64,000 bases of DNA from positions 839,344-903,343 of the forward strand of contig OZ251577.1 in NCBI GenBank assembly GCA_965243805.1. The letters are read 5' to 3'. A model generated the notes under the pieces. It did no database searches and was not told the origin of the DNA. It worked only from the letters and a program-made list of their open reading frames with translations. The position numbers and the translations under genes are program-made. Source of the stretch: Longimicrobiales bacterium. GTDB taxonomy: Bacteria > Gemmatimonadota > Gemmatimonadetes > Longimicrobiales > Gaopeijiaceae. Shown one piece after another: positions 6,326 through 43,831 of the stretch. Every line of letters begins with the position of its first letter. The first letter of the stretch is position 1.

Positions 6326-6366
6326 CGGTTGCGCCATTCGGAGCCCCGGTTGCGCCATTCGGAGCC
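6326..6366. repeat. Tandem direct repeat, 2 copies of cggttgcgccattcggagcc (period 21), in an intergenic or promoter region
   Basis: Read directly from the sequence, upstream of the outer-membrane beta-barrel gene. Confidence 0.8.
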
Positions 6367-6576
6367 GCAGGTGTCGGAGAGGGACTTTGGGGAGGTGCCG
6401 TTTTTGATATGCCACAAGATGAGGTTGGCGGCATCGGTTTAAGCAAACGGCCAGGGCGCGTTCATCGGAGAAGCGCTACCACGACTCTTTGCTGCACCGC
6501 AGGGCCATGTGGCGGTCTTCGCAGATCCATATCCGCGCTTAGAGGTACATCTTCCCAACAACCAGGAGTCCTAGAC

Positions 6577-7239
6577 ATGACGAAATCCCGCTACACTTCG
6601 CTTCTGATCGTGGTCCTGGCAGCACTGGCATCCGCGAGCGAGCCCGAACCGGCGACCGCTCAGGTCGTGCTGGCTGTCCGGGGCGGCGCGTCGATGGCAA
6701 CGCTGGCCTACAAGTCCGCTCCCGGTGTCGACGTCGGCTACCGCCGAGGACTGGCCGTCGGTATGTCGGCAACCTACTACCCGAGAGAGAACATCGGGCT
6801 CAGGCTCGGCGGCGCCTTTGTCGCTAAGGGCGCCGTGGCCAGAATGGGGGAGCTCGAGAACCCCTTGAGCATCAACTATGTCGAGCTGTCCCCGATGTTC
6901 GACATCCGGGCAGTGGTCGGCGGGGGCGACCGGGAGATTTCGTTGCACCTGCTCGCGGGACCGACCGTGTCCCTCAAGCGGGCGTGCGAGAGCGAAATCC
7001 CGGGTGGCGGCACCAGGACGCGTTGCAAGGACCTCGAGCTGGACGTGGAGGCCCTGGATGTAGGCGCGACTGTGGGCGCAGGCTTGCAGTTTCAGCTTTC
7101 CAGAAGCTCCGCGGTGGCATTGTCCGTGGAGGCAATGTACACCCTCGGCTTGAGAGCAGTTCAGGACGCGGGAGGACGAAACCCTGCCAAGAATCGAGGC
7201 TTCGTCGCCCACACCGGCCTGAGCATCCCCGTCGGCTAG
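6577..7239 (+). CDS. Outer-membrane beta-barrel protein (OmpA-like / porin-family beta-barrel), 220 aa
   Basis: There is a signal peptide (MTKSRYTSLLIVVLAALASA) and alternating amphipathic beta-strands with a C-terminal aromatic. A good SD (aggag) lies 8 nt upstream of the ATG. Confidence 0.6.
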   Translation: MTKSRYTSLLIVVLAALASASEPEPATAQVVLAVRGGASMATLAYKSAPGVDVGYRRGLAVGMSATYYPRENIGLRLGGAFVAKGAVARMGELENPLSINYVELSPMFDIRAVVGGGDREISLHLLAGPTVSLKRACESEIPGGGTRTRCKDLELDVEALDVGATVGAGLQFQLSRSSAVALSVEAMYTLGLRAVQDAGGRNPAKNRGFVAHTGLSIPVG

Positions 7240-7267
7240 GCTAGGCTAGGCCGCCATCGAGCCGCTC

Positions 7268-9631
7268 ATGATCTCCTCGCCCACCGCATCAGTGCCGATC
7301 GCGCTCGTTTCGGCAGTCTTGCTGGCTGCCTGCCTGCTTCCATCTGCCGCCAGCGCCCAGCAGGGGTCCGTCGCAGGTCGGGTGCGGGCCGAAGACGGCG
7401 TTCCAGTGGCCGACGCCACGGTTCGCCTTCGCCTAGCGGCCGACTCGAGCGTGCGGCGGCTCACGGGCACGGACCGGCTGGGCTTCTTCGTCTTCCAGCG
7501 GGTAACCCCAGGGGAGTACCTGCTGACCGTTGCCCGGATCGGCTTCGGGCCTCGCACGGAGAGCGTGTCGGTGTCCGCCGCCCGGGACGCCCGCCTGGAC
7601 ATTGTGTTGTCCACGCAGGCCGTGGAGTTGGAGGGATTGGTGGTGGAGACCCGTCGCAGCCGTCGTCGCGAATGGTTCGAGGAGTCCGCTGGGGTGACGG
7701 TGGAGGAGCTGAACCGTGCGGAGATCAAGTCGATTCCGGGGATTGCCGAAGCCGATCCGATGCGGGCCGTGGAAGTATTGCCCGGCGTGGTCACCGTATC
7801 CGACTTCTCGTCGGCCTTCAACGTGCGGGGCGGCTCCGCGGACCAGAACCTCATCCTTCTGGATGGCGTCCCGATCATCAACCCCTTCCACTTGGCGGGC
7901 TTCTTTTCGGTCTTCAATGCCGACATGGTGGAGCGAGCCGAGCTTCGGTCCGGCGGCTTTCCAGCCGAGTACGGCGGGAGAGTGTCGTCGGTCCTTACGA
8001 TCGAGACGGACTTGGGCGACGGCGAGTTCGGAGTCGATTCGGGGTTGAGCCTGCTGGCGACCCGCGTGGCCGCCGGCGACGACTTGCCGGATGGTACCAA
8101 GGCGGCACTCGGCTTCAGCAGCGCTCGCTGGAGAGTCTCGGGTCGTCGGAGCTACTTCGACTTGTTATTGCCCGATCTGCCCTACTACCTGATGGACTTT
8201 CAGGGTGCCTTCGAGGCATGGACTCGAGGTGGACACCGGCTGAAGCTTACCGCGTATTCGGGACGCGACGTGCTGAACCCGCCGGCCAGCGACGACTTTG
8301 CAGGCATGAATTCGCGCTGGGGCAACGACGCCGTCGGCGCGTCGTGGACTCGCCCCATGAGCGGCGGCGGGGCGTTCGATCTGCGCGCCTCGTTCTCGCG
8401 CTTCCACATGGACTTCGACTTCTTTGACCAGTCCGACACTGACATCGCCAACGGCGTCAGCGAGTCCTTGTTCGGGGTCGACTTGGAGCGTCGCCCGACG
8501 CCCCGCATCCGCTGGAAGTCCGGGCTCTCGGCAAAGCGCGCCACATCCGACAACCTTTCGGAGATCGGCGGAGCGGTGCTACAAGATCAGCACTTCGGCG
8601 GCTGGGAGTTGGGAGCTTATACCCAGATGCGCTGGAACCCGAGTTCCCGCTGGTTGATCGAAGGCGGCGTGCGTGTGGACTACTGGGCGCCCAGCGAGTC
8701 CCAGGAGAGGGTCGCCGGCGAGTCCTCGAACATCGTCACGGTGTCGCCACGAGGGGCCGTCAAGCGCTTCGTCGGCAACGGCAACTGGGCCGTCCGCGTG
8801 GCAGGGGGCCGCTTCACCCAGTTTCTGCACTCGCGACGAGACGAACGGCTGCCCTTCGGCATCGACGTCTGGTTGCTGGCCGAGCGTGGCGTTACCCATG
8901 TCGTCTCGGACCAAGTCCAGATGGGAGTCGAAGGCTACTTCGGTCCCGACGAGGAATGGTCCGTGTCGGCAGAGGGCTACTACCGCAGCTTCGACGGCGT
9001 GATTGCGCAGAACAACACCGAGGACCCCGCCGATCCCATGGACGATGTGGTCTCCGGCGACGGATCGTCCTACGGTGCGGACCTGATGGTGCGCAAGTCC
9101 GAAGGAGAGACGACCGGCTGGGTCTCCATCTCTTTTCTGAAGGCGATCCGCCGGTTCCCGGACACGTACTCCAGCTTGACGCCAACGCCGATCGTGGAGC
9201 ATCCGCCAGTGTTCGACCAGCGCGTCGAGGTGGACTTGGTGCTGCGACGGCCGATGGGCTGGGGCTTGGTGGGCGGCCTGCGCTGGAACTTCGGCACTGG
9301 CCTCCCCTACACGCTGCAGCTGGCCTCCTTCCGCCACTTCGACAACCGGGTGGCAGACTTGCTCGTGGAGAAGGGATGTTGCCAGAAAGGCATTCTCCTG
9401 GGACCCCTCAATGGCGAACGCTACCCGGCGCGTCACAGGCTGGACATCAGTCTGCGCAAGCCCATGGACCGAAGCTGGGGACGCGTTGTCCCCTACCTGA
9501 GCGTGATCAATCTCTACAACCGGGACAACATCCTCTTCTATGTCTTCGACTACAGCCAAGCCGAAGTGGGTCGGCGGGGCATCTCCATGATTCCCTTCCT
9601 GCCCACAGCCGGCGTGGAGGTGACGTTTTGA
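7268..9631 (+). CDS. TonB-dependent receptor with an N-terminal carboxypeptidase-regulatory-like domain (787 aa)
   Basis: It has a signal peptide, a CarbopepD_reg-like beta-sandwich (GSVAGRV...TVRL), a plug domain (DGVPIINPF) and a C-terminal barrel ending in ...VEVTF. Confidence 0.8.
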   Translation: MISSPTASVPIALVSAVLLAACLLPSAASAQQGSVAGRVRAEDGVPVADATVRLRLAADSSVRRLTGTDRLGFFVFQRVTPGEYLLTVARIGFGPRTESVSVSAARDARLDIVLSTQAVELEGLVVETRRSRRREWFEESAGVTVEELNRAEIKSIPGIAEADPMRAVEVLPGVVTVSDFSSAFNVRGGSADQNLILLDGVPIINPFHLAGFFSVFNADMVERAELRSGGFPAEYGGRVSSVLTIETDLGDGEFGVDSGLSLLATRVAAGDDLPDGTKAALGFSSARWRVSGRRSYFDLLLPDLPYYLMDFQGAFEAWTRGGHRLKLTAYSGRDVLNPPASDDFAGMNSRWGNDAVGASWTRPMSGGGAFDLRASFSRFHMDFDFFDQSDTDIANGVSESLFGVDLERRPTPRIRWKSGLSAKRATSDNLSEIGGAVLQDQHFGGWELGAYTQMRWNPSSRWLIEGGVRVDYWAPSESQERVAGESSNIVTVSPRGAVKRFVGNGNWAVRVAGGRFTQFLHSRRDERLPFGIDVWLLAERGVTHVVSDQVQMGVEGYFGPDEEWSVSAEGYYRSFDGVIAQNNTEDPADPMDDVVSGDGSSYGADLMVRKSEGETTGWVSISFLKAIRRFPDTYSSLTPTPIVEHPPVFDQRVEVDLVLRRPMGWGLVGGLRWNFGTGLPYTLQLASFRHFDNRVADLLVEKGCCQKGILLGPLNGERYPARHRLDISLRKPMDRSWGRVVPYLSVINLYNRDNILFYVFDYSQAEVGRRGISMIPFLPTAGVEVTF

Positions 9632-10638
9632 AGCTTGCAACCAGACTTCCCGTTGCAGTGGCAAGCGTCGCGGCGCTGATCATGGCGGCGTGCGACCCCA
9701 CGGGCATCGACATTCCGCCGGAGGACATGATCGTGGCCGGGGTGTGGGTGGTCGTCACCGTCGATCCGAGCGATCCGGCGCGCACGGAGCTACTTGCGAT
9801 GGGGTGGCTCCAGTGGGCGCGGACCGGCCACAAGCCGCACGAAGTCCTGGGCGCGTCGGTCCAGGTCGTCGGCGCGTCAGGGCAATCCGTCGAACTCGTC
9901 CAGAGGCCCAGCCAGGAGTCGTGCTTCAAGTTGCGGCCTCTGCCAGCCCACTTGCGTGCACCGGTCTACGGCACGTGCTACCTGGCATCGGTCTCGCCGT
10001 CCCCATTTGCGCCGGGCGAGCGGGTGTCGCTGACCATTGAGTCGCCGGAGGGCGGTACAGCGGAGGGAACGACCTGGCTGCCGGCAGCGTTCGTGCCGGA
10101 AAGCGGCTTGGCGAGCGATCATCGGCACTGCCTCGTGGAGCCCAACCAAAACCATCGCTTTCGCTGGAGCGCCGCCGATGGCGCTTGGGCGTATGTCGGA
10201 GGGGCGCTCGTCAACGGGCTCGACCCTCGGCTCTGGCCCGGGGAGGATTCGCTCTACGCCGGCGAGCCCCTTCACATGTGGGGACTCCCCATCCGCAACA
10301 ACTCGAGCGAAATGGTCTTCCCCCGAGACTTCAGCACTTTGTTTACCGCCAGCGTGGACACGGAGCTGGCAGAAGTGCTCCAGACGGGTCTGCCCAGGGA
10401 CGCGACTGCCGACGTGGCCGTCGTGGGGATCGACCGGAACTGGTTCAACTGGATTCGACTCCCGACGTTCGAGACCCTCTTCATCAACTCGGTGTTCACC
10501 ACCGGGGAGATCCGCATCCCCTCCATCTTCGGGGCCGGGTCGGGGGTGTTCGGGGCCGGCGTCCGCTGGACGGTCGCGGTGGAGTCTCGCGCCGGCGGCA
10601 TGGACGGCGACCCACCGCCGTGCGGGCCCGTCATGTAG
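9628..10638 (+). CDS. Hypothetical lipoprotein (about 336 aa)
   Basis: A TTG start overlaps the TonB-receptor stop (TTGA). The lipoprotein signal is MKLATRLPVAVASVAALIMAAC. The product is conserved-looking but unassignable. Confidence 0.45.
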   Translation: MKLATRLPVAVASVAALIMAACDPTGIDIPPEDMIVAGVWVVVTVDPSDPARTELLAMGWLQWARTGHKPHEVLGASVQVVGASGQSVELVQRPSQESCFKLRPLPAHLRAPVYGTCYLASVSPSPFAPGERVSLTIESPEGGTAEGTTWLPAAFVPESGLASDHRHCLVEPNQNHRFRWSAADGAWAYVGGALVNGLDPRLWPGEDSLYAGEPLHMWGLPIRNNSSEMVFPRDFSTLFTASVDTELAEVLQTGLPRDATADVAVVGIDRNWFNWIRLPTFETLFINSVFTTGEIRIPSIFGAGSGVFGAGVRWTVAVESRAGGMDGDPPPCGPVM

Positions 10639-10650
10639 GAGGCTGGGCGC

Positions 10651-10686
10651 ACGATCACCGTGTTCGTCACACGATCACCGTGTTCG
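10651..10686. repeat. Tandem direct repeat, 2 copies of acgatcaccgtgttcg (period 20), upstream of the cytochrome gene
   Basis: Seen directly in the sequence. Confidence 0.8.
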
Positions 10687-10727
10687 CCATTAGATCGGAG
10701 GCGCCTGTAGCCGTATGTTGTTGATTC

Positions 10728-13148
10728 ATGTCCAAGCTGTTCGCAAACCGTCGCCCCAGTGAACTGATCTGGGCGGTTCTCGTCGTAGGGCTCGTTGCGA
10801 CCGTTTCCGTCGGCATCCAGGCCGCTTCGGTTGCCGCGCTGGAGCCGCGTCCGCCTGCTCCCCAAGCCGCTCAAGCCCTCGCTGGTGCCGACGCCTGTCG
10901 CAGCTGCCACGAGGACCAGTACGTCGCGTGGGCCGCCTCCACCCACGGCACCGCCGGCGGTCCGCCAGGGCCCGAGACGGTGATTGCTCCCTTCGGCGGC
11001 TCCCCCATCCGCTTTGCCGACGCGGTGGTGTCGCCGGTCGTGGACGATGCGGGGCAATACGTCTTCGTCGTGGCGCGCCCAGGTCGCCCGCCGGTCCGAT
11101 ACGTGGTCTCGGGCGTGGTGGGACGAGGCCACATGGTGGGCGGCGGGACCCAGGGCTTCGTTTCGACCTTCCCCGACGGCACCGAGCGCTTCCTTCCCTT
11201 CGATTGGTCCGCCGATGCCGACGCATGGTTCTGCAATACGGCGTTCGTGGGAGGCTTCTGGGTGCCGGGCGCGGATCGGGCGGCGCTGCGGGCCGACGGG
11301 GGATGGCTTCCGGTGACCGAGGAGATGCGGCTGACCGAGTGCGGCGACTGGCCTCCGGTGCGCGTCCTCGGCACGACCCGCCGCTTCGCCAACTGCCAGA
11401 ACTGCCACGGCAGCGCCGTCCAGGTCTCCTACCGCCCCGAGGAGCGTCGCTACGAGACGCGGGTCGCCACCCTGCGGATCGACTGCGAGTCGTGCCACGG
11501 TCCGGCGGCGACCCACATAGAGCGGGCTCGTGCCGGCGCCTTGAGCGCGTCCGCCGACCTGGGCCTTCCCGCCCTGGACACTCTGGGCGTGGACGAGTCT
11601 CTGGCCGTCTGCTTTCAGTGCCACGCCCTGAAGCGAGCGGTGGATGTCGGCGCGTCGGGAGACCGGGTTGCGACGGAGTACAGCCTGGGCCTTCCCCTTG
11701 TGGGCGACTCGCCCTACTTGGCCGACGGACGCATCCGCACCTTCGGCTATCAGCAGACCCACCGCAGCAGCGCCTGCTACCTCTCCGGCACCATGACCTG
11801 CGTGGACTGCCACGACCCTCACACCCAGTCGTACCGGGACCCCTTCGGCACCCCGCTGGCAGGTCGCTGGGACGACGGCCAGTGCACCGCTTGCCACGCC
11901 AGCAAGGCCGCCGACCCAGAGGCCCACACCTTCCACCCGCCCGGCTCCGACGGCGCCCGCTGCGTGTCGTGCCACATGCCCTATGTGCAGCACCCGGACC
12001 TTACGGACGCGATTCCCTACGCCCGCGCCGACCACACGATCCCCGTTCCGCGCCCGGGCTTCGACGAGGCGGCGGGGCTGACTTCGGCGTGCGCGGGGTG
12101 CCATCAGGACCGGTCGGCACCGGCTCTGGCCCAGCAGGCGGCCGAGTGGTGGGGGGAGTTGAAGCCGCACCGCCCCGAGGTGACCGCGCTCTTTGCCGCC
12201 GACCACTCTCTGCGTACATCGGTGCGCCGGGCTGCGGATGCGGCAGCGGATGCGGATGGGGCTGCGGATGCGGATGCGGATGGGGATGGGGCCACGGAGC
12301 GTCCACCGGCACGCCCGGAGCTGGCAGCGCTGCTGGAAGCTGCCGGGCTGGGGGAGCGCTACGGCCTGGCCAAGATCATGGCGGTGGACGCGTGGGTCTT
12401 GGCCGCGACCGCTGCGCCGAACACCCCTGTCCGCGACGCCACGGCCGCTGCCGCGCTGGCCGGCTTGGCCCGCGACCCCGACGTGGACGTGCGCGCCATC
12501 GCCGGCGCCGCCCTCCATGCGGTCTACGACGAAGGGCCGGCGGTCGGTGCCCCAGACGCCCTCCGCGCCCGCTGGGCCGGCGCCCTTTCCCAGTGGGGCG
12601 CCGCCGTGGCCCGGTCCCGGGGACCCGAGGCGGCGCTTCCTTTCCTGCGCAAGGCACGGGCGGTCCGGCCCGCTGACCCCGAGGCGCTGATCGGCCTCGC
12701 CGCCGGACTTTCGGCCCTCGGGGAGCACAGGCAGGCCGTGCAGGCGTACCAGGAAGCGCTGCGCCACGAGCCCGACCACCCCGTCGCCCTGGTGAACCTG
12801 GGGCTGGGGCTCGAGTCCCTGGGCCGCGAAGCCGAGGCCGAAGCCGCTTACCAGCGCGCGGTGCAGGCGCGGCCCCGCGAAGCCCTTCCCCACTTCAACC
12901 TGGGGAACGTGCGCTTCCGCCGAGGCGATCTCCCGGGCGCCGCCGCCGCGTACCGCACCGCGGTCGAGGCCGACCCGGGCTTGGCCCGCGCCCACTTCTA
13001 TCTGGCCGTCGTGCTGATCAACACCGGAAGCCCCGAAGCCGCGCTTCCGGCCTTGTACAACGCCGCCGAGTTCGCCCCGGAGGACGAGGAGATACGCCAG
13101 CTCCTCCGGCAACTGGAAGCCGCACTCCGCGGCCCGTTCTCGCGTTGA
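10728..13148 (+). CDS. Multiheme cytochrome c (8 CxxCH motifs) fused to C-terminal HEAT-like and TPR repeats (806 aa)
   Basis: The eight heme-binding motifs are CRSCH, CQNCH, CESCH, CFQCH, CVDCH, CTACH, CVSCH and CAGCH. There is an N-terminal TM anchor and a low-complexity AADAAADADGAADADADGDG linker encoded by gcggat repeats. TPR repeats lie near the C-terminus. Confidence 0.75.
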   Translation: MSKLFANRRPSELIWAVLVVGLVATVSVGIQAASVAALEPRPPAPQAAQALAGADACRSCHEDQYVAWAASTHGTAGGPPGPETVIAPFGGSPIRFADAVVSPVVDDAGQYVFVVARPGRPPVRYVVSGVVGRGHMVGGGTQGFVSTFPDGTERFLPFDWSADADAWFCNTAFVGGFWVPGADRAALRADGGWLPVTEEMRLTECGDWPPVRVLGTTRRFANCQNCHGSAVQVSYRPEERRYETRVATLRIDCESCHGPAATHIERARAGALSASADLGLPALDTLGVDESLAVCFQCHALKRAVDVGASGDRVATEYSLGLPLVGDSPYLADGRIRTFGYQQTHRSSACYLSGTMTCVDCHDPHTQSYRDPFGTPLAGRWDDGQCTACHASKAADPEAHTFHPPGSDGARCVSCHMPYVQHPDLTDAIPYARADHTIPVPRPGFDEAAGLTSACAGCHQDRSAPALAQQAAEWWGELKPHRPEVTALFAADHSLRTSVRRAADAAADADGAADADADGDGATERPPARPELAALLEAAGLGERYGLAKIMAVDAWVLAATAAPNTPVRDATAAAALAGLARDPDVDVRAIAGAALHAVYDEGPAVGAPDALRARWAGALSQWGAAVARSRGPEAALPFLRKARAVRPADPEALIGLAAGLSALGEHRQAVQAYQEALRHEPDHPVALVNLGLGLESLGREAEAEAAYQRAVQARPREALPHFNLGNVRFRRGDLPGAAAAYRTAVEADPGLARAHFYLAVVLINTGSPEAALPALYNAAEFAPEDEEIRQLLRQLEAALRGPFSR

Positions 13149-13164
13149 CTAGATTTCTCGTGCC

Positions 13165-14515: not shown

Positions 14516-16230
14516 GGCCCTCTAGAGTAGGACCGTTCGAGGATCGCCGCCATGTGGTCGTGCCCGGAGGCGCGGGCGCGTTCCAGGGGCGTAGCGGGCG
14601 GAAGATCCCGAGGCAACGTTGGGTCTGCGCCCTGGGCGAGGAGGAGGGCGGCGGCAGCGCGACGGCCAGCGGCAGCGGCCCAGGCCAGGGGCGTTCCCAG
14701 ATGCTCGTCGTCGAGAACGTCGGGGTCGGCGCCATGGTCCAGCAGGAGCCTCACGGCCTCGGTTTCGCTCCGTCCCGCGTAGTGGTGGAGGGCGGTCTGG
14801 CCGAGCCAGCCGGGCCGATTGGGGTCGAAGCCCGCGGCCAGGAGGCGTCGGATCAGGTCAAGGTCCGAGATGGCCCGGTCGGGGTCGCCCATGCGCAGCG
14901 TGGCGCCGTTCAGCCGGCGGGCCGCCTCTGGGTCGGCCTCCAGGAGCAGGTCGGCCAAGGCAAGGTCGTTGCGCGCCAAGACTTCCTCGGCGAACCAGGG
15001 GACGTGAACGCTGGACGCGCGGGCCTCCAGAGCGGCGGCGAGCTCGCCGTTGGTCATGCGCCAGGGCGGCGTCTCGGCACCGTGGGCCAGCAGCAGTACC
15101 TCGATGCGGCGCGCCTCGTCGCCCTGGCAAGACCGAACGATCCCCAAGCAGCTGTCCGACGAGTCCGGCGCCGAGTTCGGGTCCGCGCCATAGCTCAGAA
15201 GGACTTCCGTCACTGCTACGTGGCCCCGAGCGCAGGCGTGCCAGAGAGCGTGTCCCCGGGGCGCCAGCTCTTCCGGCTGATTGGGGTCGGCCCCGTGCCG
15301 GAGAAGCAGCGCCACCACATCCTCGTGGCCGGCCCGAGCCGCATAGCTCAGGGGCGACCGGCGGCCCGAGTCCAGCGAGCAGCCCGCGCCCAGCGAGCGA
15401 GTCGAATCCAGAGAGTGAACCGCGCCCATCGAGCGAGTCGCGCCGAGGGAGCGAGCCGCGCCGGGAGCATCCGCGAGCAGCGTGCGCGCCAGCCCCAAGT
15501 CTCCCGTGGCACAGGCTACCGAGAGGTCGGCCCGGGCGCCTGCGTCGGCGAGGGCTTGCAGAACCGCATTGTCGTCGGCGTGATCGACTCCCTTCAGCTC
15601 CCGCCAGACTCGGTACTCGTAGTCGCCGTTGAACAGGACGTGGGAGGGGGTCTGGCCGTCGCTTCGTCGATGGTCCGGGTCGGCGCCAAGCGCGCACAGA
15701 GGCGCAACCAGCTCCGGCTGACGGGTCATGACGGCCCAGTGGACGGCGTTCCTGCCCATGATGTCGGCCGCTCGGGCGAGGCCGGGCGTGCGGGCCAGCA
15801 CGGCGTCCACCTGCTGCCGCTCGCGGGACGCCATCGCTCGCCTCAGCACATCGAAGTCCGGAGCGTAGCCGAAACGTCGCCCGGCGGTATCTACCAGCAC
15901 TGCGCGCACCTCGTTGAAGCCGTAGCGAGTCGCCCGTCGCAGCAGCTTGCTCCACCCCGAGTCCATGAAGCGCGTGCGTCCAGGCTCGGCTCCCGCCTCT
16001 AGCAGCATTCGCACAACTGCCGGCTGGTTGGCGTACACAGCAAGGTGAATGGGCTGCGTGTACCAGTACTGGGCGTGCACGAGGTTCGGGTCCTCTGTCG
16101 TCAGCTCCCGCACTCGAGCTTCGTCGCCGTCCCGGCAGGCCTCGAAGAGACCCCAAGCCTGGGCGCCGTCCACAGGGTCCACGTCGTAGACGTAGCTCCC
16201 CTTCCTCCCCGGCGAACTCCCCTCCATCCC
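14512..16230 (-). CDS. Ankyrin-repeat protein (about 572 aa)
   Basis: There are multiple ANK repeats (...TPLHVLF..., GADPNQ..., GADPDVLDD...[10 protein letters not shown]...). An internal tandem 27-bp repeat encodes ARSLGATRS / MGAVHSLDS / TRSLGAGCS. The start is set at an internal ATG (MEGSSPG). Confidence 0.7.
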
Positions 16231-16285
16231 CAGCGGACGGGCACGGCGACGGCGGGGACACGCACGGTGACGGCGCGCCATCCCG

Positions 16286-22039: not shown

Positions 22040-22147
22040 GAAAGAGGCCGACAAGAGGCCGACAAGAGGCCGACAAGAGGCCGACAAGAGGCCGACAAGA
22101 GGCCGACAAGAGGCCGACAAGAGGCCGACAAGAGGCCGATCCGAAAG
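22040..22147. repeat. Perfect tandem repeat, 11-bp unit (agaggccgaca) in about 9.7 copies, in the divergent intergenic region between the serine-hydrolase gene and the lipoprotein operon
   Basis: Contiguous identical units are read directly from the sequence. There are no spacers, so this is not a CRISPR array. Confidence 0.9.
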
Positions 22148-27636: not shown

Positions 27637-28456
27637 AGCGTCCCTCGATGTATCCTGTGGTGCGTTCGTCGCGGACCCGTCCCGCGAAGAGGTCCTCGGT
27701 CTTGCCCGTCTCCACTACCTCTCCCGTGAGAAAGAAGGCGGTTCGGTCGGCCAGGCGCCGGGCCTGCTGCACCAAGTTGGTCACCAGGACGATCGTGATC
27801 TCGGCGCGCAGCTCCTTCAGCACATCCTCGATGCGCATTGTGGTGACGGGGTCCACGGCAATGGAGAACTCGTCCAGCAGGAGAAGCTCCGGCTCCTGGG
27901 AGAGCGCGCGGGCGATCGTCAGCCGCTGCTGCTGGCCTCCCGAGAGAAGGCTGCCCAGCGACGCCAACCGGTCCTTCACTTCGTCCCAGAGGGCGGCCCG
28001 GGTCAGGCAGCGTTCCACCACCTCGTCCAGCTCGGCCTTCCGGCGCACGCCCCTCAGGCGCGGGGCGAAGGCCACGTTCTCGTAGATGCTCAGGGGCAAG
28101 CCGACGGGCAACGGAAAGACGACGCCGATGCGGCGACGGAGGGCGTAGAGGTTGCGTGCCTCGGCCACGTCCCGGCCGTTGATCTTGACGACGCCCTTCA
28201 CATCCATCGCCGGGTCGAATGCGTCCATGCGGTTCAGCACTCGCAGGAAGGACGTCTTGCCGCTGTTGGCGGGACCGATGATGCCGAAGATCTCGTTTCG
28301 GTACACCTCCAAGCTGGCGTCCCGGAGGGCGAGCTTGCCCCCGTAGGAGATCGTCAGGTCGCGCACCTCCACCACCGGCGGCTTGTCGTAGCGAGGACCC
28401 GTGTCGTAGCGGGGACCCGTGGCGGGTTCGGGGCCGCCCGCGGGGGAGGGACCCAT
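27629..28456 (-). CDS. pstB: Second PstB-like phosphate ABC transporter ATPase (275 aa)
   Basis: Walker A (GPANSGKTS), LSGGQQQRL and LLLLDEF are present. The C-terminal ...TGYIEGRFG is PstB-like. The start is set at the internal ATG, directly downstream of pstA. Confidence 0.8.
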   Translation of the reverse strand: MGPSPAGGPEPATGPRYDTGPRYDKPPVVEVRDLTISYGGKLALRDASLEVYRNEIFGIIGPANSGKTSFLRVLNRMDAFDPAMDVKGVVKINGRDVAEARNLYALRRRIGVVFPLPVGLPLSIYENVAFAPRLRGVRRKAELDEVVERCLTRAALWDEVKDRLASLGSLLSGGQQQRLTIARALSQEPELLLLDEFSIAVDPVTTMRIEDVLKELRAEITIVLVTNLVQQARRLADRTAFFLTGEVVETGKTEDLFAGRVRDERTTGYIEGRFG

Positions 28457-31128: not shown

Positions 31129-31255
31129 CTTGTGGTCTCGGGGAAGTCGGGAGCGTGCGGGATGGATGGAACTGCCGGGAAGGCTATCCGCCGCGTGTCA
31201 CGGTGCGGTAACCGAAAGGCAACGATGCCGTTCGTGCCGCCGACGCCGAGCCGAT

Positions 31256-31320
31256 CCGCGAACGCCAAACCCGCGAACGCCAAACCATTCTCGCCGACGC
31301 CAACCCTTCTTCGCCGACGC
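31256..31320. promoter_or_regulatory. Direct-repeat cluster upstream of pstS (2 copies of ccgcgaacgccaaac, then tcgccgacgc repeated at 20-bp spacing). It may be a Pho-box-like regulatory array.
   Basis: The repeats are read from the sequence. The Pho-regulon interpretation is inference. Confidence 0.35.
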
Positions 31321-33429: not shown

Positions 33430-33463
33430 CCTTCCCTAGGAGGTCCGCCTTCCCCAGGAGGTC
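33430..33463. repeat. Tandem duplication, 2 copies of ccttccc(t/c)aggaggtc (period 18), duplicating the Shine-Dalgarno of the PQQ-dehydrogenase gene
   Basis: Seen directly in the sequence. Confidence 0.8.
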
Positions 33464-33464: not shown

Positions 33465-35456
33465 GTGTTGACTGGCCGAACCAACCGCCCGTTCCACACC
33501 GTTGCGCTGGCGTCGGTGTTCGTCGCCGCTTGCCTGCCGCCCTCCGCCGCCGCCTCGGCCCAGCGGGGCACCGAGGCCGGAGAGTGGCGGCACTACGGGG
33601 GCGGACCGGGGAACACGCGCTACTCGCCGCTGGACCAGATCGACCGCACCAACGCCGGCTCGATGGAGGTGGCGTGGCGCTGGCAGGCGGCCAACTTCGG
33701 TCCGGCGCCCGAGTTCAACTACCGGACGACCCCCATCATGGTGGACGGGGTGCTCTACGCCACGGCGGGCTACCGGCGGACGGTGGCCGCGATCGACGCT
33801 GGCACCGGCGAGACCCTTTGGACCTACCGGCTGGACGAGGGAGACCGATCGGCGCCTCGACGCAACTCGGGCCGTGGGGTGGCGTACTGGGAGCCGCCGG
33901 AGGGCGCGGGCGGCCCTCGCATCTTCTTCGTAACGCCGGGGTTCCGACTGGTGGCACTGGACGCGGGAAGCGGGAGACCAGTGCAGGAGTTCGGCGACGG
34001 CGGGATCGTGGAGTTGCGGCGGGAGCTGGGACGGGAGGTCGATCTGGAAGGCGCGCCGATCGGCTCCAGCTCGCCGCCGGTGGTGGTGGAGAACGTGGTG
34101 GTGGTCGGGTCCGCGCTGCCGTCGGGGGGCGCGCCGCCCTCGCCCGAGATGCCCCCGGGTCACGTCCGAGGGTACGACGCCCTCACCGGCGAGCGCCTGT
34201 GGACCTTCCACACCATCCCCCAGCCCGGCGAGTTCGGGCACGAGACGTGGGAGGACGGCTCCTGGGAGTACACGGGCAACGCCGCCGTTTGGACGGCGAT
34301 CAGCGCGGACCCGGACCTGGGGCTGGTCTACCTGCCGGTGGAAGCCGGCACCGGCGACTACTACGGCGGCCATCGCCTCGGCGACAACCTCTTCTCCCAG
34401 AGCCTGGTGGCCGTGCACGCGACGACCGGCGAGCGCGCTTGGCACTTCCAGACCGTGCACCACGGGATATGGGACTACGACCCGCCAGCGGCGCCGGTGC
34501 TGGCCGACTTGGTTGTGGACGGGCGACCTGTCCCCGCGGTGGCCCAGATCACCAAGCAGACGTTCACCTTCGTGCTGGATCGGCGGACCGGCGAGCCGGT
34601 GTGGCCCGTCGAGGAGCGTCCCGTCCCCCAGACCGACGTGCCGGGCGAACGCACATCGCCCACCCAGCCCTTCCCCACCAAGCCCCCGCCCTTCGACCGG
34701 CAAGGCGTGGACCCGGCCGATCTGATCGACTTCACGCCCGAGCTGCGGGCCGAAGCGGAAGCGATCTTGGCGCAGCTGCGGTGGGGTCCGCTGTACACGC
34801 CCCCGTCGGTGGCGGTGGAGGGGGGCACGCAAGGCACACTCATGGTGCCCGGCTCTCTGGGCGGCGCCAACTGGCCCGGCGCGGCGTGGGACCCCGAGTC
34901 CGGTCGGCTCTTCGTGCAGTCTGCCACCCACCCCAGCGTGATCGCCCTGGAGCAGGACCCGGAACGGTCCTCCATGAACTTCGTGCGCGGCGGGGGACTG
35001 CGGCTTCGGCGCGGGGGCGGTCCCCAGGGGTTGCCGCTCTTCAAGCCGCCGTGGGGACGGATTACGGCGCTCGACCTGAACGCCGGCGAGATCGCGTGGC
35101 AGGTCCCCAACGGCGACGCGCCCGACTACGTGAAGGAGCACCCGGCCTTGGAGGGGGTGGAGGTGGGAAGGACCGGAAGGCAGGATCGGGGCGGCCTTCT
35201 GGTCACCCGGACGCTGCTCTTCGCGGGCGAGGGCGGCGGGATGTACGCGGCCCAGGGGTCGGGCGGCAGGATGTTGCGGGCTCACGACAAGTCCACCGGC
35301 GCGATCGTGGCGGAGATCGAGCTGCCCGCCAACCAGACGGGCCTGCCCATGACCTACATGCACGAAGGGCGGCAGTTCGTGGTGGTGGCGGTGGGCGCGC
35401 GCCGGCACCCAGGGGAGCTGGTTGCGCTGGCGCTGCCGGAGGGAGGCGGGCGTTGA
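33465..35456 (+). CDS. PQQ-dependent quinoprotein dehydrogenase (sugar/alcohol dehydrogenase family), secreted, 663 aa
   Basis: A GTG start follows AGGAGG. There is a signal peptide and eight-bladed propeller W-motifs (...RLWTFHT..., ...AWHFQTVHHGIWDYD...), characteristic of PQQ dehydrogenases. Confidence 0.75.
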   Translation: MLTGRTNRPFHTVALASVFVAACLPPSAAASAQRGTEAGEWRHYGGGPGNTRYSPLDQIDRTNAGSMEVAWRWQAANFGPAPEFNYRTTPIMVDGVLYATAGYRRTVAAIDAGTGETLWTYRLDEGDRSAPRRNSGRGVAYWEPPEGAGGPRIFFVTPGFRLVALDAGSGRPVQEFGDGGIVELRRELGREVDLEGAPIGSSSPPVVVENVVVVGSALPSGGAPPSPEMPPGHVRGYDALTGERLWTFHTIPQPGEFGHETWEDGSWEYTGNAAVWTAISADPDLGLVYLPVEAGTGDYYGGHRLGDNLFSQSLVAVHATTGERAWHFQTVHHGIWDYDPPAAPVLADLVVDGRPVPAVAQITKQTFTFVLDRRTGEPVWPVEERPVPQTDVPGERTSPTQPFPTKPPPFDRQGVDPADLIDFTPELRAEAEAILAQLRWGPLYTPPSVAVEGGTQGTLMVPGSLGGANWPGAAWDPESGRLFVQSATHPSVIALEQDPERSSMNFVRGGGLRLRRGGGPQGLPLFKPPWGRITALDLNAGEIAWQVPNGDAPDYVKEHPALEGVEVGRTGRQDRGGLLVTRTLLFAGEGGGMYAAQGSGGRMLRAHDKSTGAIVAEIELPANQTGLPMTYMHEGRQFVVVAVGARRHPGELVALALPEGGGR

Positions 35457-35644
35457 ACCCCATGGGCTGGTGCACCAAGCTGAGGGCTTGTTGCTGGCCG
35501 ATCTGCCTAGCTGTTCTTGGGTTTGCGTCGGGTGCGTGTGCGCCGGACGGCCAGCGGTGGACCTGGGTCAAGGACACGGCCTTCCAGATCACGTAGGGGG
35601 CCTTGCCCCCGCGCCCCCTGACGGCCACATTCCCTCGCACAACT

Positions 35645-35818
35645 GAAACGGCCGGAGGGGCTCACGGAAGCCGGTGCGAACCCGGCGCGGCCCCGCCACT
35701 GTGACGAGGTCCGGGACGAGCTTCCCGGAACGTCCGCTCCACCATGCCACTGGAACCCTGTCGGGCCGGGTTCTGGGAAGGCGAGTGGGACGGCCTCGCT
35801 AGCCAGGAGACGTGCTCC
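35645..35818 (+). promoter_or_regulatory. Cobalamin (AdoCbl) riboswitch in the 5' leader of the TonB-dependent receptor gene
   Basis: The leader contains GGAAGCCGGTGCGAACCCGGCGCGGCCCCGCCACTGTGACG, which matches the conserved core and B12 box (GCCACTG). The downstream AGCCAGGAGACGTGC matches the 3' conserved element. Confidence 0.65.
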
Positions 35819-35926
35819 TTCGGCACCCACGTCAACGCCTCCGCGGGGAGGCGAGGGTGCTCGTGAACCAGCGCAACGCGGTGCTGGCATGTCCCTCTTC
35901 TTCCGCACGGGGGAAAGGAGAGAGGC

Positions 35927-37972
35927 ATGATGAAGTTCTGCGTCACGCGAGTCCCTTCCCCGGCGGCCCTTCTGGTCGCCCTTCCGCTCGTTCTCGTTCC
36001 GCCGGCCGTCTCCCAAGAGCAGCCTGTGCCGCTTGAGGGGCTGGTGGTCACCGCTTCGAGGGGGCCGGCGCCGGCGTGGACTGTCGCGTCCCACACCACC
36101 GTGCTGGAAGGCGAGGCGCTGGAGCGGGCGGGCATCGAGTACGTGGCCGACGCGCTCCGGCAGCTTCCCGGCGTAGCGGTGGTGCGCAACGGATCGTTCG
36201 GGGCGACCACCTCCGTCTTCCTGCGGGGCGGCGAATCGGACTACGTGCAGGTTCTGGTGGACGGCGTGCCCGCCAACGAGCCGGGAGGCCGCTTCGACTT
36301 CGGGTCGATCAGCACCGACAACGTGGAGCGGATCGAGGTGGTGCGGGGACCGGCGTCCGCGCTGTACGGCTCCGACGCCGTGAGCGGAGTCGTCCACATC
36401 CTGACCCGACGGGGCCAGGGGCAGCCGGCCGCCCACCTTTCCTGGCGAGCCGGGAGCTTCGGCACGCGACAGTGGGAAGGGGCGGTCTCCGGCGGCTCCA
36501 GACTCCTCTCCTACGCCTTTTCGCTGGGACGCAACGACTCCGACGGTATTCTGGAGTTCAACAACGGCCATCGGGCGACCACAGCTAGTGGGCGCGTCCA
36601 TGTCCAGCCGGATTTACGCACCGACGCGGCACTCTCGGTCCGCTACGAGGACCGGCGCTTCCACTTCCCCACCGACGGCTCCGGCGCTCTGGTGGACCGG
36701 AACGCCTTCACCTTCGGTGACGCGCTGGCGGTGGCGGTCGACGCCGGGCGGCGCTGGACGGACGCTTTCGAGACGCGAGTGGCCGTGACCGTACACGAAT
36801 CCGACGGAGGAACCGACGACGGACCCGACGGACCCGCGGACACGCTGGGGTTCTTCGGCTTCCAGAGCCTGGGCGACGTTCGCCGGGCGACCGCAGACGC
36901 CCGCGCCACATGGCGGTTCGAGGGCGAGTCCACGCTGGCTGTGGGAGTGGAGGTGGAGCGCCAGTCGATCCGGGATTTCAGCAAGTCGCTGTCCCAGTTC
37001 GGGAGCAGCCCCAGCCGGTCGGAGAACGAGCGGTCGAACCGAGCGGCCTATGCCCAGGTCTTGGCCGTGCTGGGCGGACCTTCTGGCGGCAGTGCGGCCG
37101 GGGAGTTGGCGCTGAACGGGGGCGGGGAGCTGGCGCTGAACGGGGGCGTGCGGCTGGAGGACAACGAGCGCTTCGGGACGGCGGCAACGTGGCGGGGCGG
37201 TGCGGCTTGGCGGACCCCCCTGCGAGGGACTCGGCTGCGGGTCTCGGTTGGCACCGGGATCAAGGAGCCCACCTTCTTCGAGTCCTTTGCCTCGGGTTTC
37301 GCAAGGGGTAATCCAGAGTTGGAGCCGGAGCGCTCGACGGGCTTCGAGGCCGGTGTGGATCAGGATATGGCAGGCGGGGCGGTCCGGCTCTCGCTGACCG
37401 GGTACTCCCAGAGCTACCGCAACCTGATCCAGTACACCTTCTCGCCGCCGGTGGCAGGCGGTCCCAACTACCACAACGTGGCCAAGGCGCGGAGCCGCGG
37501 CGTGGAGGCCGAGGCGACGGCTGCGGCGGGCCCGGTGCGGCTGTCGGCCTCGTACGCGTGGGTGGACACGGAGGTGCAGGACGCCGGCTTCGACGAGGGA
37601 CCAGGGGCGTCGTTCGTGGAGGGACAGCCGCTGCTTCGGCGCCCGAAGCACACTGTGACGGCCAGTGCTTTCGTCCCGGTCGGCGAGCGCGTCGGCTTGG
37701 ACTTGGCGGCTCGGCGAGTCGGCGAGCGGGAGGACCGGGACTTCGGGACGTGGCCCGCGACCCCGGTGGTGCTGGCCCCCTACACCGTGGTGGACGCGGC
37801 GGTCCATGCTCGGCTGTTCGGGGGCGACGGCCGGCCCGCGCTGGACCTGATCGTCCGCGCCGAGAACGTGCTGGGCGCCGACTACCAGGAGGTGCACGGC
37901 TTCGCTGCACCCGGGCGCGGCGTGTACGTCGGCGGGAAGGTGTCGGTGGGCGGCAGCGGCGGCGAGCGGTAG
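35927..37972 (+). CDS. btuB: TonB-dependent outer-membrane receptor, BtuB-like (cobalamin/corrinoid uptake inferred from the riboswitch), 681 aa
   Basis: It has a signal peptide, a TonB box region, a plug (...RIEVVRGPASALYGSDAVSGVVHILTRRG) and a barrel. A strong SD (ggaaaggagagagg) precedes the ATG. Confidence 0.75.
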   Translation: MMKFCVTRVPSPAALLVALPLVLVPPAVSQEQPVPLEGLVVTASRGPAPAWTVASHTTVLEGEALERAGIEYVADALRQLPGVAVVRNGSFGATTSVFLRGGESDYVQVLVDGVPANEPGGRFDFGSISTDNVERIEVVRGPASALYGSDAVSGVVHILTRRGQGQPAAHLSWRAGSFGTRQWEGAVSGGSRLLSYAFSLGRNDSDGILEFNNGHRATTASGRVHVQPDLRTDAALSVRYEDRRFHFPTDGSGALVDRNAFTFGDALAVAVDAGRRWTDAFETRVAVTVHESDGGTDDGPDGPADTLGFFGFQSLGDVRRATADARATWRFEGESTLAVGVEVERQSIRDFSKSLSQFGSSPSRSENERSNRAAYAQVLAVLGGPSGGSAAGELALNGGGELALNGGVRLEDNERFGTAATWRGGAAWRTPLRGTRLRVSVGTGIKEPTFFESFASGFARGNPELEPERSTGFEAGVDQDMAGGAVRLSLTGYSQSYRNLIQYTFSPPVAGGPNYHNVAKARSRGVEAEATAAAGPVRLSASYAWVDTEVQDAGFDEGPGASFVEGQPLLRRPKHTVTASAFVPVGERVGLDLAARRVGEREDRDFGTWPATPVVLAPYTVVDAAVHARLFGGDGRPALDLIVRAENVLGADYQEVHGFAAPGRGVYVGGKVSVGGSGGER

Positions 37973-39568: not shown

Positions 39569-39641
39569 TCAAAAGACGAGCCAGGAGGCCAAGCGTCAAC
39601 ATCGCCCCGCTGGCTTGGGACCGAGGCGGGCACTACTTTCT

Positions 39642-39679
39642 CCGGGTCACGCCCCAGTGTCCCCGGGTCACGCCCCAGC
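39642..39679. repeat. Tandem direct repeat, 2 copies of ccgggtcacgccccag (period 22), in the divergent promoter region between the transporter and peptidase genes
   Basis: Seen directly in the sequence. Confidence 0.8.
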
Positions 39680-39705
39680 GCATTCCCACAAGAAGAGACT
39701 CCGTC

Positions 39706-41781: not shown

Positions 41782-41785
41782 CGTC

Positions 41786-43276
41786 ATGGCTGGATCGACA
41801 CGCAAGGGCAAGGGGGAGGGCAAGAGCGTCGCGGGCATCGAAGTCGCCAACTTCGGTCCAATTGTCGAGGCCGACGTGGACCTTCGGCCTCTCACGGTGT
41901 TCGTGGGTCCAAGCAACACGGGCAAGTCCTATTTGGCGATGTTGATCTACGCGCTCCACCGATTCGCAAGCGATCCGCTGTTCCATGGCTTCAGGCCCGC
42001 TCATCGCATGAAACTACTGCGGGACATTCCCGTGGAAGGTTTGGGTTCTGTACTGCGGGGCTGGCTGGAGGATGTATCTTTGGACGGTCGCCCCATGGTT
42101 GGACGCTTGCCAACGAGAGTATCGGCAGTTGTGCGCAGAGTACTCGCCGAGCCCGAACAGCTGGCGAACGCTCTGGGCGAGGGGATAGCGTCAAGTCTTG
42201 GATTTACCGATCTCGGCCACCTCGTCCGGCACGACGCGCAGGACTCGGCCACCGTGGCTTGGCGTGCCGGTGCCGCTGGCGGGCCTATGTCGAGATACAG
42301 CTACACGATCAAACGCCACGGCAAACCAACGCTTACCGGAGAAGTGCCCGCTACACTTGATCTACGAATCCCGTCGCCTCGCATCGGCAGATCGCTGTGG
42401 CTGCTGCGTCGGCATGCCGGTGCGGAGGAGTTGAGCGAATCCGATGTCCGTCGGATACTGGCCGACGTCGCCGATTTGGCCTTCTGTTCCACGGTTGGTC
42501 AGTTCAATCGGAGAGCACACTACTTACCGGCTGATCGCACGGGAATCATGCACGCTCACAGCATGGTGGTTCGCTCGCTGATTGGGCAGGCCTCACATGC
42601 CGGGATTCGCCGCCAAGTCGAAGTGCCTTTGTTGTCGGGCGTCTTGGCCGACTTCCTCGAGAACTTGATTGATCTGCCCAGCTCCAGATCGCAGTACGGA
42701 GAGCTCGTTGGAGTGATGGAATCCGATCTCTTGAGGGGATCGGTCGAAAGTAGGAAGTCCGACACTGGCTATCCTTTGTTCTCTTATCAGCCCAATGGCT
42801 GGGCGAACGGCCTCCCGCTGATGAATGCGTCGTCGATGGTGTCGGAACTTGCTCCGGTGGCACTGTACCTCCGCCACGTGGTCAAGCCGGGGGAGTTATT
42901 GATCATCGAGGAACCCGAGTCTCACTTGCATCCAGCCATGCAGGTTCGCCTTGCTCAATTCTTGGCCAGGGTTGCAAAACGCGGGCTACGGCTTCTGGTG
43001 ACGACACATAGCGAGATCTTCTTGGAGGCACTCAGCAACGTGATTGTCCTGGATGGCATCCCGGAGGCAGAACGAATCGGAATCTCAGGAAGCGATTCTA
43101 CCATACCGCAAGACGATGTGGGCGTTTGGCTGTTTGGTCGCGACGACGCTCGCGGATCGCACGTAAGAGAGATCGGACTGGATGTCGAGTCTGGAACGTT
43201 TCCCACGCAGTTCGAGCTAGTGAGCGAAGCCCTGTACTACGACTGGGCCAGAACCCTTGACCGGAGCAATGGATGA
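41786..43276 (+). CDS. OLD/AbiEii-like ABC-type ATPase (AAA_15/AAA_21 family), 496 aa, in a low-GC islet
   Basis: Walker A (FVGPSNTGKSYL), Walker B plus D-loop (LLIIEEPESHLHP) and H-loop (LLVTTHSEIF) are present. GC is about 10-12% below the flanks. The ATG lies only 4 nt after the peptidase stop. Confidence 0.7.
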   Translation: MAGSTRKGKGEGKSVAGIEVANFGPIVEADVDLRPLTVFVGPSNTGKSYLAMLIYALHRFASDPLFHGFRPAHRMKLLRDIPVEGLGSVLRGWLEDVSLDGRPMVGRLPTRVSAVVRRVLAEPEQLANALGEGIASSLGFTDLGHLVRHDAQDSATVAWRAGAAGGPMSRYSYTIKRHGKPTLTGEVPATLDLRIPSPRIGRSLWLLRRHAGAEELSESDVRRILADVADLAFCSTVGQFNRRAHYLPADRTGIMHAHSMVVRSLIGQASHAGIRRQVEVPLLSGVLADFLENLIDLPSSRSQYGELVGVMESDLLRGSVESRKSDTGYPLFSYQPNGWANGLPLMNASSMVSELAPVALYLRHVVKPGELLIIEEPESHLHPAMQVRLAQFLARVAKRGLRLLVTTHSEIFLEALSNVIVLDGIPEAERIGISGSDSTIPQDDVGVWLFGRDDARGSHVREIGLDVESGTFPTQFELVSEALYYDWARTLDRSNG

Positions 43277-43282
43277 ACGAAC

Positions 43283-43831
43283 ATGACTTCAGTTAGAAAT
43301 GCCATTTTGGCAAAGATTGAATCCCGTTGGCAGACGACCGAATCCCGTTGGCGGACCACAACATGCCAAAGCAATAACTGCTCGGTTGACATGGACAATG
43401 CCCCGGAACCGTTTGACATGATCAACCTCGATCGGATTGCGACAAGGGATCTGGAAGCCATGAGCGTCGATCGAAAGCGTTGCGACTACCTGTACTTGGG
43501 CACGGCGGACAACGGTGGTCACGTGGTGATCGCTCCTATTGAACTGAAGGGGGGCACCAACTTTCGGTCAGCCACTGTCGTACAGCAGTTGCAGACGGGA
43601 GCCGAGATAGCGGATGCCATCGTTCCGGCCGATGTGTCCTTCTCGTTTGTTCCCGTACTGGCTTCCCATAAGCCTCGGCGGCGTCATGTATGGCGGGGAC
43701 TGCGGACGCCAGTCATCTTCCGCAACAAGAGCCGTGCCATAACGACAATACAATGCGGCGAGCGGCTCACGACTGCGTTGGAGGCGGCCAGGACCAGGCG
43801 GGCCCCGGCCCCCGCGGTCGTCAGCTCGTAG
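43283..43831 (+). CDS. Hypothetical protein (182 aa), partner of the ATPase. No recognisable domain.
   Basis: It starts 7 nt after the ATPase stop and has the same low GC. It contains a tandem 21-bp duplication (ESRWQTT ESRWRTT). Confidence 0.4.
   Translation: MTSVRNAILAKIESRWQTTESRWRTTTCQSNNCSVDMDNAPEPFDMINLDRIATRDLEAMSVDRKRCDYLYLGTADNGGHVVIAPIELKGGTNFRSATVVQQLQTGAEIADAIVPADVSFSFVPVLASHKPRRRHVWRGLRTPVIFRNKSRAITTIQCGERLTTALEAARTRRAPAPAVVSS

Follow-up and report, generated by a model that had tools for sequence, protein, structure and literature searches.

Short tandem duplications are regarded as a universal class of spontaneous mutation and as the proposed origin of most tandem repeats; de novo events have been reported in bacteria, archaea and fungi, and they rise in rad27 mutants, which has linked them to Okazaki-fragment maturation (bioRxiv 10.64898/2026.02.28.708716). 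Microhomology-mediated tandem duplication (MTD) was described in S. pombe, with reports from bacteria, archaea and eukaryotes, and is recognized by microhomology arms, which are of 4–25 nt in MTDfinder and of at least 1 nt in the preprint (bioRxiv 10.64898/2026.02.28.708716). A literature search found nothing specific on such duplications in Gemmatimonadota or in sponge symbionts, and this general MTD preprint was the only relevant source. Here, a 64,000-nt stretch of a Longimicrobiales bacterium (GenBank assembly GCA_965243805.1, contig OZ251577.1, positions 839,344–903,343), referred to below as the window, is described in which duplications of 15–24 bp are unusually dense. They are genuine, polymorphic among close relatives and polarized towards gain, and have a narrow size spectrum, a biased location and short junction microhomology. 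With a probability of roughly three in four, they are recent short tandem duplications, representing the first step in the birth of variable-number tandem repeats (VNTRs), which have been filtered by purifying selection and are dense in this species-level lineage.

Density of the duplications

A first-pass annotation of the window listed nine two-copy tandem duplications, and all nine were found, at or a few bases from where it had placed them (22751 is the start of the sequence context, the repeat itself beginning at 22770). The in-frame coding repeats that it described also exist, in the linker of a cytochrome/TPR protein, in an ankyrin-repeat protein, in a ligase and, as GELALNGG twice, in a BtuB-like receptor (Table 1). 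Events of the same type additional to the nine lie at 16196, 25847, 28384, 37099, 45404 and 45721, all of which, apart from 37099, were absent from that annotation. Counted with the in-frame repeat at 57323, they bring the additional loci to at least seven. Sixteen loci with periods of 15–24 bp consist of head-to-tail copies of sequence that is otherwise unique within the window.

The density is confirmed as real and statistically robust. Third-order Markov simulations give about 0.3 non-simple repeat loci, compared with 14 in the window, and 0.0 loci with periods of 15–24 bp, compared with the 11 observed. Nine events with periods of 17–24 bp occur in the 64 kb against 0.57 expected (Poisson P=1e-8), the expectation being drawn from 13 such events in 1.456 Mb at 80 loci of other species. 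The density of 15–24-bp head-to-tail duplications is about 16 times that of related species. Periods of 7–14 bp are not above chance, the cluster lies at 15–24 bp with a mode of 21 bp, and in the window scan no periods of 25–120 bp were found except multiples of an 11-mer array (see below). Such repeats are all but missing from the homologous region of relatives at 85–86% identity, which indicates that the accumulation is recent and specific to this clade.

Polymorphism and age

Each duplicated locus was dated by alignment of the homologous DNA of relatives across it. Nucleotide identity to the window is 96–97% for L083, L085 and L091, about 96% for L087 and L089, about 95% for L081 and L090, 86% for L086 and 85% for L082. 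A comparison of presence and absence in sister genomes had been proposed as a check, and it reveals duplications gained and lost among genomes that differ by 3–5%. Since the units are also unrelated in sequence, the earlier suggestion of a mutational signature is upheld, as opposed to a collection of functional elements.

The duplications at 28384, 31087 and 37099 are common to every relative at 95% or above and missing in L086 and L082, those at 6326 and 10650 are common to the 96% relatives that cover the sites, and those at 17490, 39637 and 45404 are common to just one other assembly. Two-copy events confined to the window lie at 16196, 22770, 31256 and 43307, together with added units at three repeat loci. 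Copy number changes stepwise at 33430, where the pair has a period of 18 bp and is identical at 16 of 18 positions, and at 25847, which has 0 extra bp in L087 and L081, 21 in L083 and 39 in the window. L081 has private gains of its own, of 15 bp and 20 bp. A single-copy allele is seen in relatives for 16196, 17490, 22770, 28384, 31087, 31256, 37099, 39637, 43307 and 45404. The two copies at 6326 in L085 place that duplication before the split of the window from L085, and the 45721 repeat, which is present and diverged in all relatives compared, is old.

Proteins carry the same record. The doubled PstS N-terminus encoded at 31087 occurs in six proteins of the clade (90% cluster), and the single-copy form in four sister proteins (289 aa) and in 88–89% homologues. 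Orthologues of the cytochrome/TPR protein at 90% identity or above have 793, 798, 806 or 816 aa, with indels of +42 and −12/−24 bp against relatives in the 12229 array. The 15364 array is 36 bp longer in the window than in L089 and 24 bp longer than in L085.

It is very unlikely that the duplications are instead artefacts of assembly or sequencing, such as k-mer overlaps left un-merged where contigs were joined, or consensus errors of a long-read metagenome-assembled genome (MAG). Eight loci (6326, 10650, 17490, 28384, 31087, 37099, 39637 and 45404) are also found in short-read contigs assembled independently from other samples, and the short-read relative L081 has its private events of the same type. 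Unit lengths range over 15–24 bp rather than taking a fixed value (k or k−1), copy pairs are mostly diverged, many of them by 1–4 substitutions, and the reading frame is kept in every coding event, all lengths being divisible by 3 (P=0.0014 on the assumption that length is independent of frame). What an artefact would explain is that the events at 16196, 22770, 31256 and 43307 are in no other assembly, two of them as perfect copies, that the window has a significant surplus of long insertions (19:5), and that a search of JGI metagenomes for the 22770 junction returned a sole match, L093, which is unrelated sequence. Artefact is ruled out at most loci and is formally possible at those four. Error-prone synthesis was considered for the diverged copies of apparently recent events and is not needed, as 1–2 differences per 42 bp fit a genome divergence of 3–5%.

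Table 1. Tandem duplications and in-frame repeat arrays of the window, with their gene context and their state in related genomes (SD, Shine–Dalgarno sequence)
Position	Strand	Repeat	Context	Relatives
6326–6366		21 bp ×2, 20/21 identical	Intergenic, 19 nt past stop of AraC-type HTH gene (5516–6307)	Two copies, more diverged, in L085 (96%)
10650–10689		20 bp ×2, 19/20 identical	Intergenic, 12 nt past stop at 10638 and 39 nt ahead of multihaem cytochrome/TPR gene start (10728)	Found in L085; perfect copies in L089
12229–12292	+	6/30-bp in-frame array	Cytochrome/TPR linker	Copy number variable
15364–15462	−	18 bp ×5 in-frame array	Ankyrin-repeat protein gene	
16196–16235		21 bp ×2, 84% identical	Ankyrin gene 5' end or upstream	Single copy in L085, L089
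17490–17527	−	19 bp ×2, 18/19 identical	TonB-receptor/lipoprotein gene junction	Not in L085; 20-bp unit in independent assembly L089
22770–22807	+	18 bp ×2, perfect	In frame within last 18 codons of 205/211-aa gene	One copy in L081–L085, L087–L089
25847–25892		21 bp, imperfect, 2.2 copies	Between PLD gene stop (25778) and methyltransferase start (~25910)	
28384–28421	−	18 bp ×2, in frame	N-terminal extension of PstB1	In all 95–97% relatives; not in L086, L082
31087–31128	−	21 bp ×2, 20/21 identical	pstS start codon and 6 codons (MKRIAPL/MKRIAPI)	
31256–31320		Perfect 15 bp ×2, then imperfect 20 bp ×2.2	Intergenic, 128–190 nt upstream of pstS	Window +35 bp vs L083/L084/L087/L088; larger excess vs L081
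33410–33465	+	18–20-bp SD-bearing unit (CCTTCCCCAGGAGGTCTG), three units	Ends at PQQ dehydrogenase GTG start	Four copies in L081; L086 sequence different
37099–37148	+	24 bp ×2, in frame (GELALNGG ×2)	Within BtuB-like TonB receptor	Common to L083, L081; about one unit in L086
39637–39678		21 bp ×2, 19/21 identical	Divergent Nramp/S9-peptidase intergenic region, 25 nt upstream of ATG 39703	Not in L083, L081; present, diverged in L087
43307–43352 (43307/43319)		21 bp ×2, 84% identical with indel	583-bp uncalled region between AAA_15 ATPase and DUF885 genes	Not in L091, L092
45404–45446	−	21 bp ×2, in frame (ADADP(A)L ×2)	Directly after lipoprotein signal peptide of DUF885 protein	Not in L090/L091/L092; found in independent contig encoding P0255
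45721–45765	−	15 bp ×3, imperfect, in frame	C-terminal ~45 codons of SNF2/PLD helicase	
57323–57389	+	21 bp ×3.2, in frame	AMP-binding ligase	Window one unit more than L090
57542–57579	+	12 bp ×3.2, in frame	C-terminus of AMP-binding ligase	L090 without 27 bp here

Size spectrum and junctions

Indels between the window and relatives at 90% identity or above are bimodal, falling at 1–6 bp and at 18–21 bp (mode 21). No simple indel exceeds 24 bp, and longer ones are sums of units (15+20, 21+18, 2×18 and 3×11). Of the 24 indels that reach 8 bp, about 17 add or remove tandem copies. Short indels are symmetric, with the additional sequence in the window in 43 cases and in the relative in 48.

The first-pass annotation had also suggested that the duplications were microhomology-mediated. 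The junctions carry only 0–2 nt of microhomology ('GA' at 22770, 'C' at 31256 and none at 17490, 10650 or 31087), and this part of the suggestion is not sustained as worded. Arms of at least 2 nt occur at four of 13 loci (P=0.007 against chance) and of at least 1 nt at six (P=0.08); arms of at least 4 nt, by which MTDfinder defines a candidate MTD site, occur at none of the 13.

A motif search among the units found no common motif and no motif at their boundaries. The 9-mer TGTTCGCCA, which has four matches where 0.5 are expected, was considered as a shared motif; it occurs in two of the duplications, 10650 and 17490, and at one further place, but at no other duplicated locus, and was treated as a coincidence. 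Nor is there an association with hairpins or palindromes, as the fold energies of the units resemble those of random windows (mean percentile 0.43). A search of the window against Rfam returned only a cobalamin riboswitch (35641–35833), with no family at the duplications, and there are no tRNAs.

Location relative to genes

For the test of location, a gene map was made from gene calls carried over from relatives, over the interval 4,893–45,572. Intergenic DNA makes up 6.9% of this interval, yet seven of the 14 duplications lie there (P=1.6e-5). Other events lie at the edges of genes: 17490 at a stop–start junction, 31087 at a start codon, 22770 in the last 18 codons, 28384 and 45404 in an N-terminal extension or just past a signal peptide, and 45721 in a C-terminal tail. 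The sole event deep inside a gene is 37099, which is in frame. Intergenic events come after stops (6326 and 10650) as often as before starts.

It had been proposed that the duplications favour start codons and SD sites. The enrichment is for intergenic DNA and gene ends generally, as at 6326, 10650, 22770, 45721 and 17490, and targeting of these signals is not borne out. Almost all intergenic DNA in this genome is within about 100 nt of a start. The association with starts and SD sites is thus a survivorship effect, arising because nearly all tolerant DNA in a compact genome adjoins starts or stops. The pattern is that expected of roughly position-blind mutation filtered by purifying selection, and no targeting of translation signals is needed to account for it.

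The individual effects on translation signals that the first-pass annotation described are nevertheless present. PstS begins MKRIAPLMKRIAPI, and two in-frame pstS starts are a plausible local consequence of the 31087 duplication. Upstream of the PQQ dehydrogenase, both units of the 33430 pair contain GGAGG, and they end at the GTG start at 33465; three to four tandem SD-bearing units ahead of this gene, each predicted to be able to form a small CCUUCC/GGAGG hairpin, are another plausible local consequence. At 22770, the duplication covers the SD of an overlapping sugar-transferase gene (start 22820).

At the junction of the TonB receptor and lipoprotein genes, the 17490 unit consists of the TAG stop, a 4-nt spacer, and the TTG start with 3.7 codons of the 404-aa lipoprotein. 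Its duplication would create a four-codon mini-ORF (open reading frame), TTG GCG AAC AGC TAG, before the lipoprotein gene (17500). It would also move the lipoprotein start 19 nt away from its SD, a GAGG within the last codons of the receptor. Translation of the lipoprotein may depend on re-initiation past the putative mini-ORF.

Regulator-binding sites and the pstS promoter

The first-pass annotation offered an alternative for the promoter-located copies, namely that they are binding sites for response regulators. More broadly, the promoter-proximal duplications could be direct-repeat operators, such as PhoB sites at pstS, or tandem SD or start sites that tune expression. The duplications at 10650, 25847, 31256, 33430 and 39637 do lie 0–130 nt upstream of starts, and the SD-bearing 33430 unit is held at three to four copies in all relatives at 95% or above. 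However, the 31256, 39637 and 43307 duplications and the second step at 25847 are missing in 95–97% relatives, and none of them is found in the 85–86% relatives (L082 and L086). The units have no consensus (one 9-mer is common to two loci), their periods of 15–21 bp are not the 10–11 bp of OmpR/PhoB sites, and the same type of event occurs within coding sequence and past stop codons. By this lack of conservation and of any consensus, the regulator-site explanation is largely refuted and was rejected, and the broader explanation is very improbable.

A better candidate for a Pho box is present in the same promoter. An 11-bp-period direct repeat, TGTCACGGTGC/GGTAACCGAAA (TGTCAC..GGTAAC), lies at 31195–31216, 67–88 nt upstream of pstS, and is kept in all relatives, including L082 at 85%. 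This candidate Pho box is distinct from the non-conserved duplications further upstream, at 31256, which directly follow the stop of a Band_7 gene. Pho boxes of the OmpR/PhoB family resemble the duplications in being tandem direct repeats upstream of genes such as pstS; they differ in having a period of 10–11 bp, a common consensus and conservation in orthologous promoters, none of which is true of the duplications.

Other Longimicrobiales, L035 and L051, have unrelated two-copy repeats just upstream of their own pstS, of 21 bp at 9817–9858 and of 23 bp at 8711–8756, respectively, which speaks for the operator explanation. The L051 unit begins TGTAAC, and it could be a genuine doubled Pho box. 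The repeats in these genomes also hint that the region upstream of pstS is a tolerant or favoured site.

Origin of the duplications

The preferred explanation, lineage-specific short tandem duplication followed by purifying selection, would operate as follows. A replication- or repair-associated process would copy a unique stretch of 15–24 bp (mode 21) head to tail, with 0–2 nt of microhomology. Selection would remove out-of-frame or disruptive copies within genes, and the survivors would be those in intergenic DNA, at gene boundaries and in signal peptides, linkers and termini, always in frame if coding. As the enzymatic source, our preferred guess would be defective processing of flaps or of the lagging strand, or else template switching, as has been implicated in the tandem duplications of rad27/FEN1 mutants. 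We infer that the excess reflects a raised mutation rate and not weaker selection.

Several observations weigh against this explanation. The figures for density and location are those of the 64-kb window of the source genome. Junction microhomology of 0–2 nt is shorter than classical slippage or MTD models propose, and no tested feature accounts for the narrow 18–21-bp mode. Long insertions number 19 in the window against five in the relatives (Fisher P=0.006 compared with the short-indel ratio); this skew could stem from an elevated rate on the branch leading to the window, or it may arise because short-read assemblies of mixed populations under-represent duplicated alleles. Finally, the few events seen in the window only (16196, 22770, 31256 and 43307) may be long-read assembly errors.

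A stronger form of the proposal is that the lineage is in a mutator state, which copies about two helical turns (18–21 bp) with almost no microhomology, at a rate an order of magnitude above that of its sisters and possibly higher still on the window branch, as the 19:5 ratio would allow. This is a tentative suggestion and on balance unlikely. Candidate causes would be altered processing of flaps or Okazaki fragments, or end joining on staggered cuts of about 21 nt. If true, such a state would seed new VNTRs, alternative starts and SD arrays.

Staggered cuts also figure in a different explanation, by which a mobile element or a nuclease cutting with a stagger of about 21 bp (two turns) left the duplications as footprints, a bare target-site duplication resulting from fill-in and end joining or from excision of an element. 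The narrow sizes, the mode of 21, the sharp limit at 24 bp and the near-absence of microhomology fit fixed-stagger fill-in better than slippage, and nucleases are encoded in the defence island of the window (41.8–55.6 kb). Against this, none of the relatives carries an element at any of the sites, and the other allele is in every case a clean single copy; lengths vary over 15–24 bp, and the unit boundaries have no conserved sequence. To our knowledge, no bacterial transposon family combines 18–21-bp target duplications with footprint-leaving excision. An origin of this kind is considered highly improbable.

Should the excess prove genome-wide, this lineage would offer a natural case for the study of tandem-repeat birth, with events datable on a phylogeny of almost identical genomes, and their uniform size and minimal microhomology would constrain models of microhomology-guided slippage. 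For annotation, duplicated starts, SD sites and stop–start junctions in such genomes would be neutral by-products. They would still give rise to ambiguous gene starts, as for pstS and the 17500 lipoprotein gene, and to small upstream ORFs.

Other features of the window

The window has a G+C content of 68% and a gene set typical of Gemmatimonadota, with TonB-dependent receptors containing CarboxypepD_reg domains, a pstSCAB-B operon and a PQQ dehydrogenase, together with the multihaem cytochrome/TPR protein, the ankyrin-repeat protein and a lower-GC defence island at about 41.8–55.6 kb. The top matches of PstS in species-representative genomes are Longimicrobiales MAGs, at 76% identity or less. 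The nearest matches of the genome are from sponge-type metagenomes. A protein database search found an identical cytochrome/TPR protein on a contig of 3,871,965 bp, evidently the source chromosome, and close relatives on several ENA 'PANK22-1 ... METAG' scaffolds and on Logan contigs.

A perfect 11-bp array, AAGAGGCCGAC ×8.9, occupies 22042–22139, in the intergenic DNA between divergent genes and 49 bp before the start (22188) of the 205/211-aa gene. The unit is present at this locus in every relative down to 85% identity, at about 5 to at least 16 copies, and each unit contains an SD-like AGAGG. The array breaks two short-read assemblies, in which it appears as runs of N. It looks like a conserved hypervariable VNTR, perhaps a contingency-type locus or a repeated binding or standby site, and is distinct from the two-copy duplications.

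Downstream of the 6326 duplication, the window lacks, at 6441/6442, about 2.2 kb that is present in L085 (3465–5661), comprising two genes, for proteins of 114 aa and 204 aa, and the greater part of a third, a DUF5128 gene of 399 aa. Of this third gene the window keeps just the final 43 codons (6443–6571), and the breakpoint is 75 bp from the duplication.

The cobalamin riboswitch (35641–35833, plus strand; RF00174, 67.8 bits) precedes the gene for the BtuB-like TonB receptor at 35927, and accounts for the long, apparently empty intergenic region before this gene.

The defence-type island (41786–55579; 62–65% G+C) encodes an AAA_15/AAA_21 ATPase, an SNF2 helicase with an N-terminal PLD nuclease domain, an M78 (IrrE-like) peptidase and an Eco57I-like restriction–modification (RM) enzyme; L090 has an additional AAA_22 ATPase gene between the helicase and DUF885 genes. 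Within ORF 51137–54646 (minus strand) of the Type IIG RM gene, a 26-nt homopolymer at 51273–51298, poly-G on the coding strand, encodes a poly-Gly linker. In L090 the tract is 27 nt and the RM gene is a single ORF of 1276 aa, whereas the window has a frameshift at this point, which divides the gene into ORFs 51137–54646 and 50373–51140. The frameshift may represent phase variation or a pseudogene, or else a sequencing error in the homopolymer. A second homopolymer, poly-G(17) at 54579–54595, is found about 370 nt ahead of the probable RM gene start; its counterpart in L090 is poly-G(18), followed by a scaffold gap and more G runs. This tract may be phase-variable too, within the promoter region.

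Comparison with known duplication classes

Target-site duplications and excision footprints of transposons are short, fairly uniform direct repeats without microhomology, as are the duplications of the window. The latter differ in that no genome has an element between the copies or close to them, the lengths are variable and there is no target motif.

The VNTR or minisatellite loci used in multiple-locus VNTR analysis offer a closer likeness. Copy number varies among strains at 12229, 15364, 22042, 25847, 33430 and 57323, and such loci are likewise intergenic, or in frame within coding sequence. The difference is one of stage, as most of the loci described here are at the two-copy birth stage, arising from unique sequence, and are not established arrays.

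Yeast deficient in the rad27/FEN1 flap endonuclease shows an excess of short tandem duplications (5 to ~100 bp) that is tied to lagging-strand maturation, and E. coli polA 5'-nuclease mutants have the same duplication mutator signature. Duplications of this signature typically have flanking direct repeats of 3–12 bp, unlike those of the window, and the likeness may be taken as a mechanistic analogy only.

The duplications belong to the class of short tandem duplications, in that unique sequence passes from one copy to two and single-copy alleles persist in relatives. With MTDs they share the head-to-tail doubling of a unique segment, polymorphism among close isolates, constraint in coding regions and, at 25847, 33430 and 57323, further growth into multi-copy repeats. 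In the window, however, the arms are just 0–2 nt, compared with the 4–25 nt of MTDfinder, the sizes are tight at 18–21 bp and the events are about 16 times as dense as in related species, a lineage effect of a kind not described for MTD. The class of event is thus already known, and it is the intensity in this lineage, together with the size signature, that forms the modestly interesting new part.

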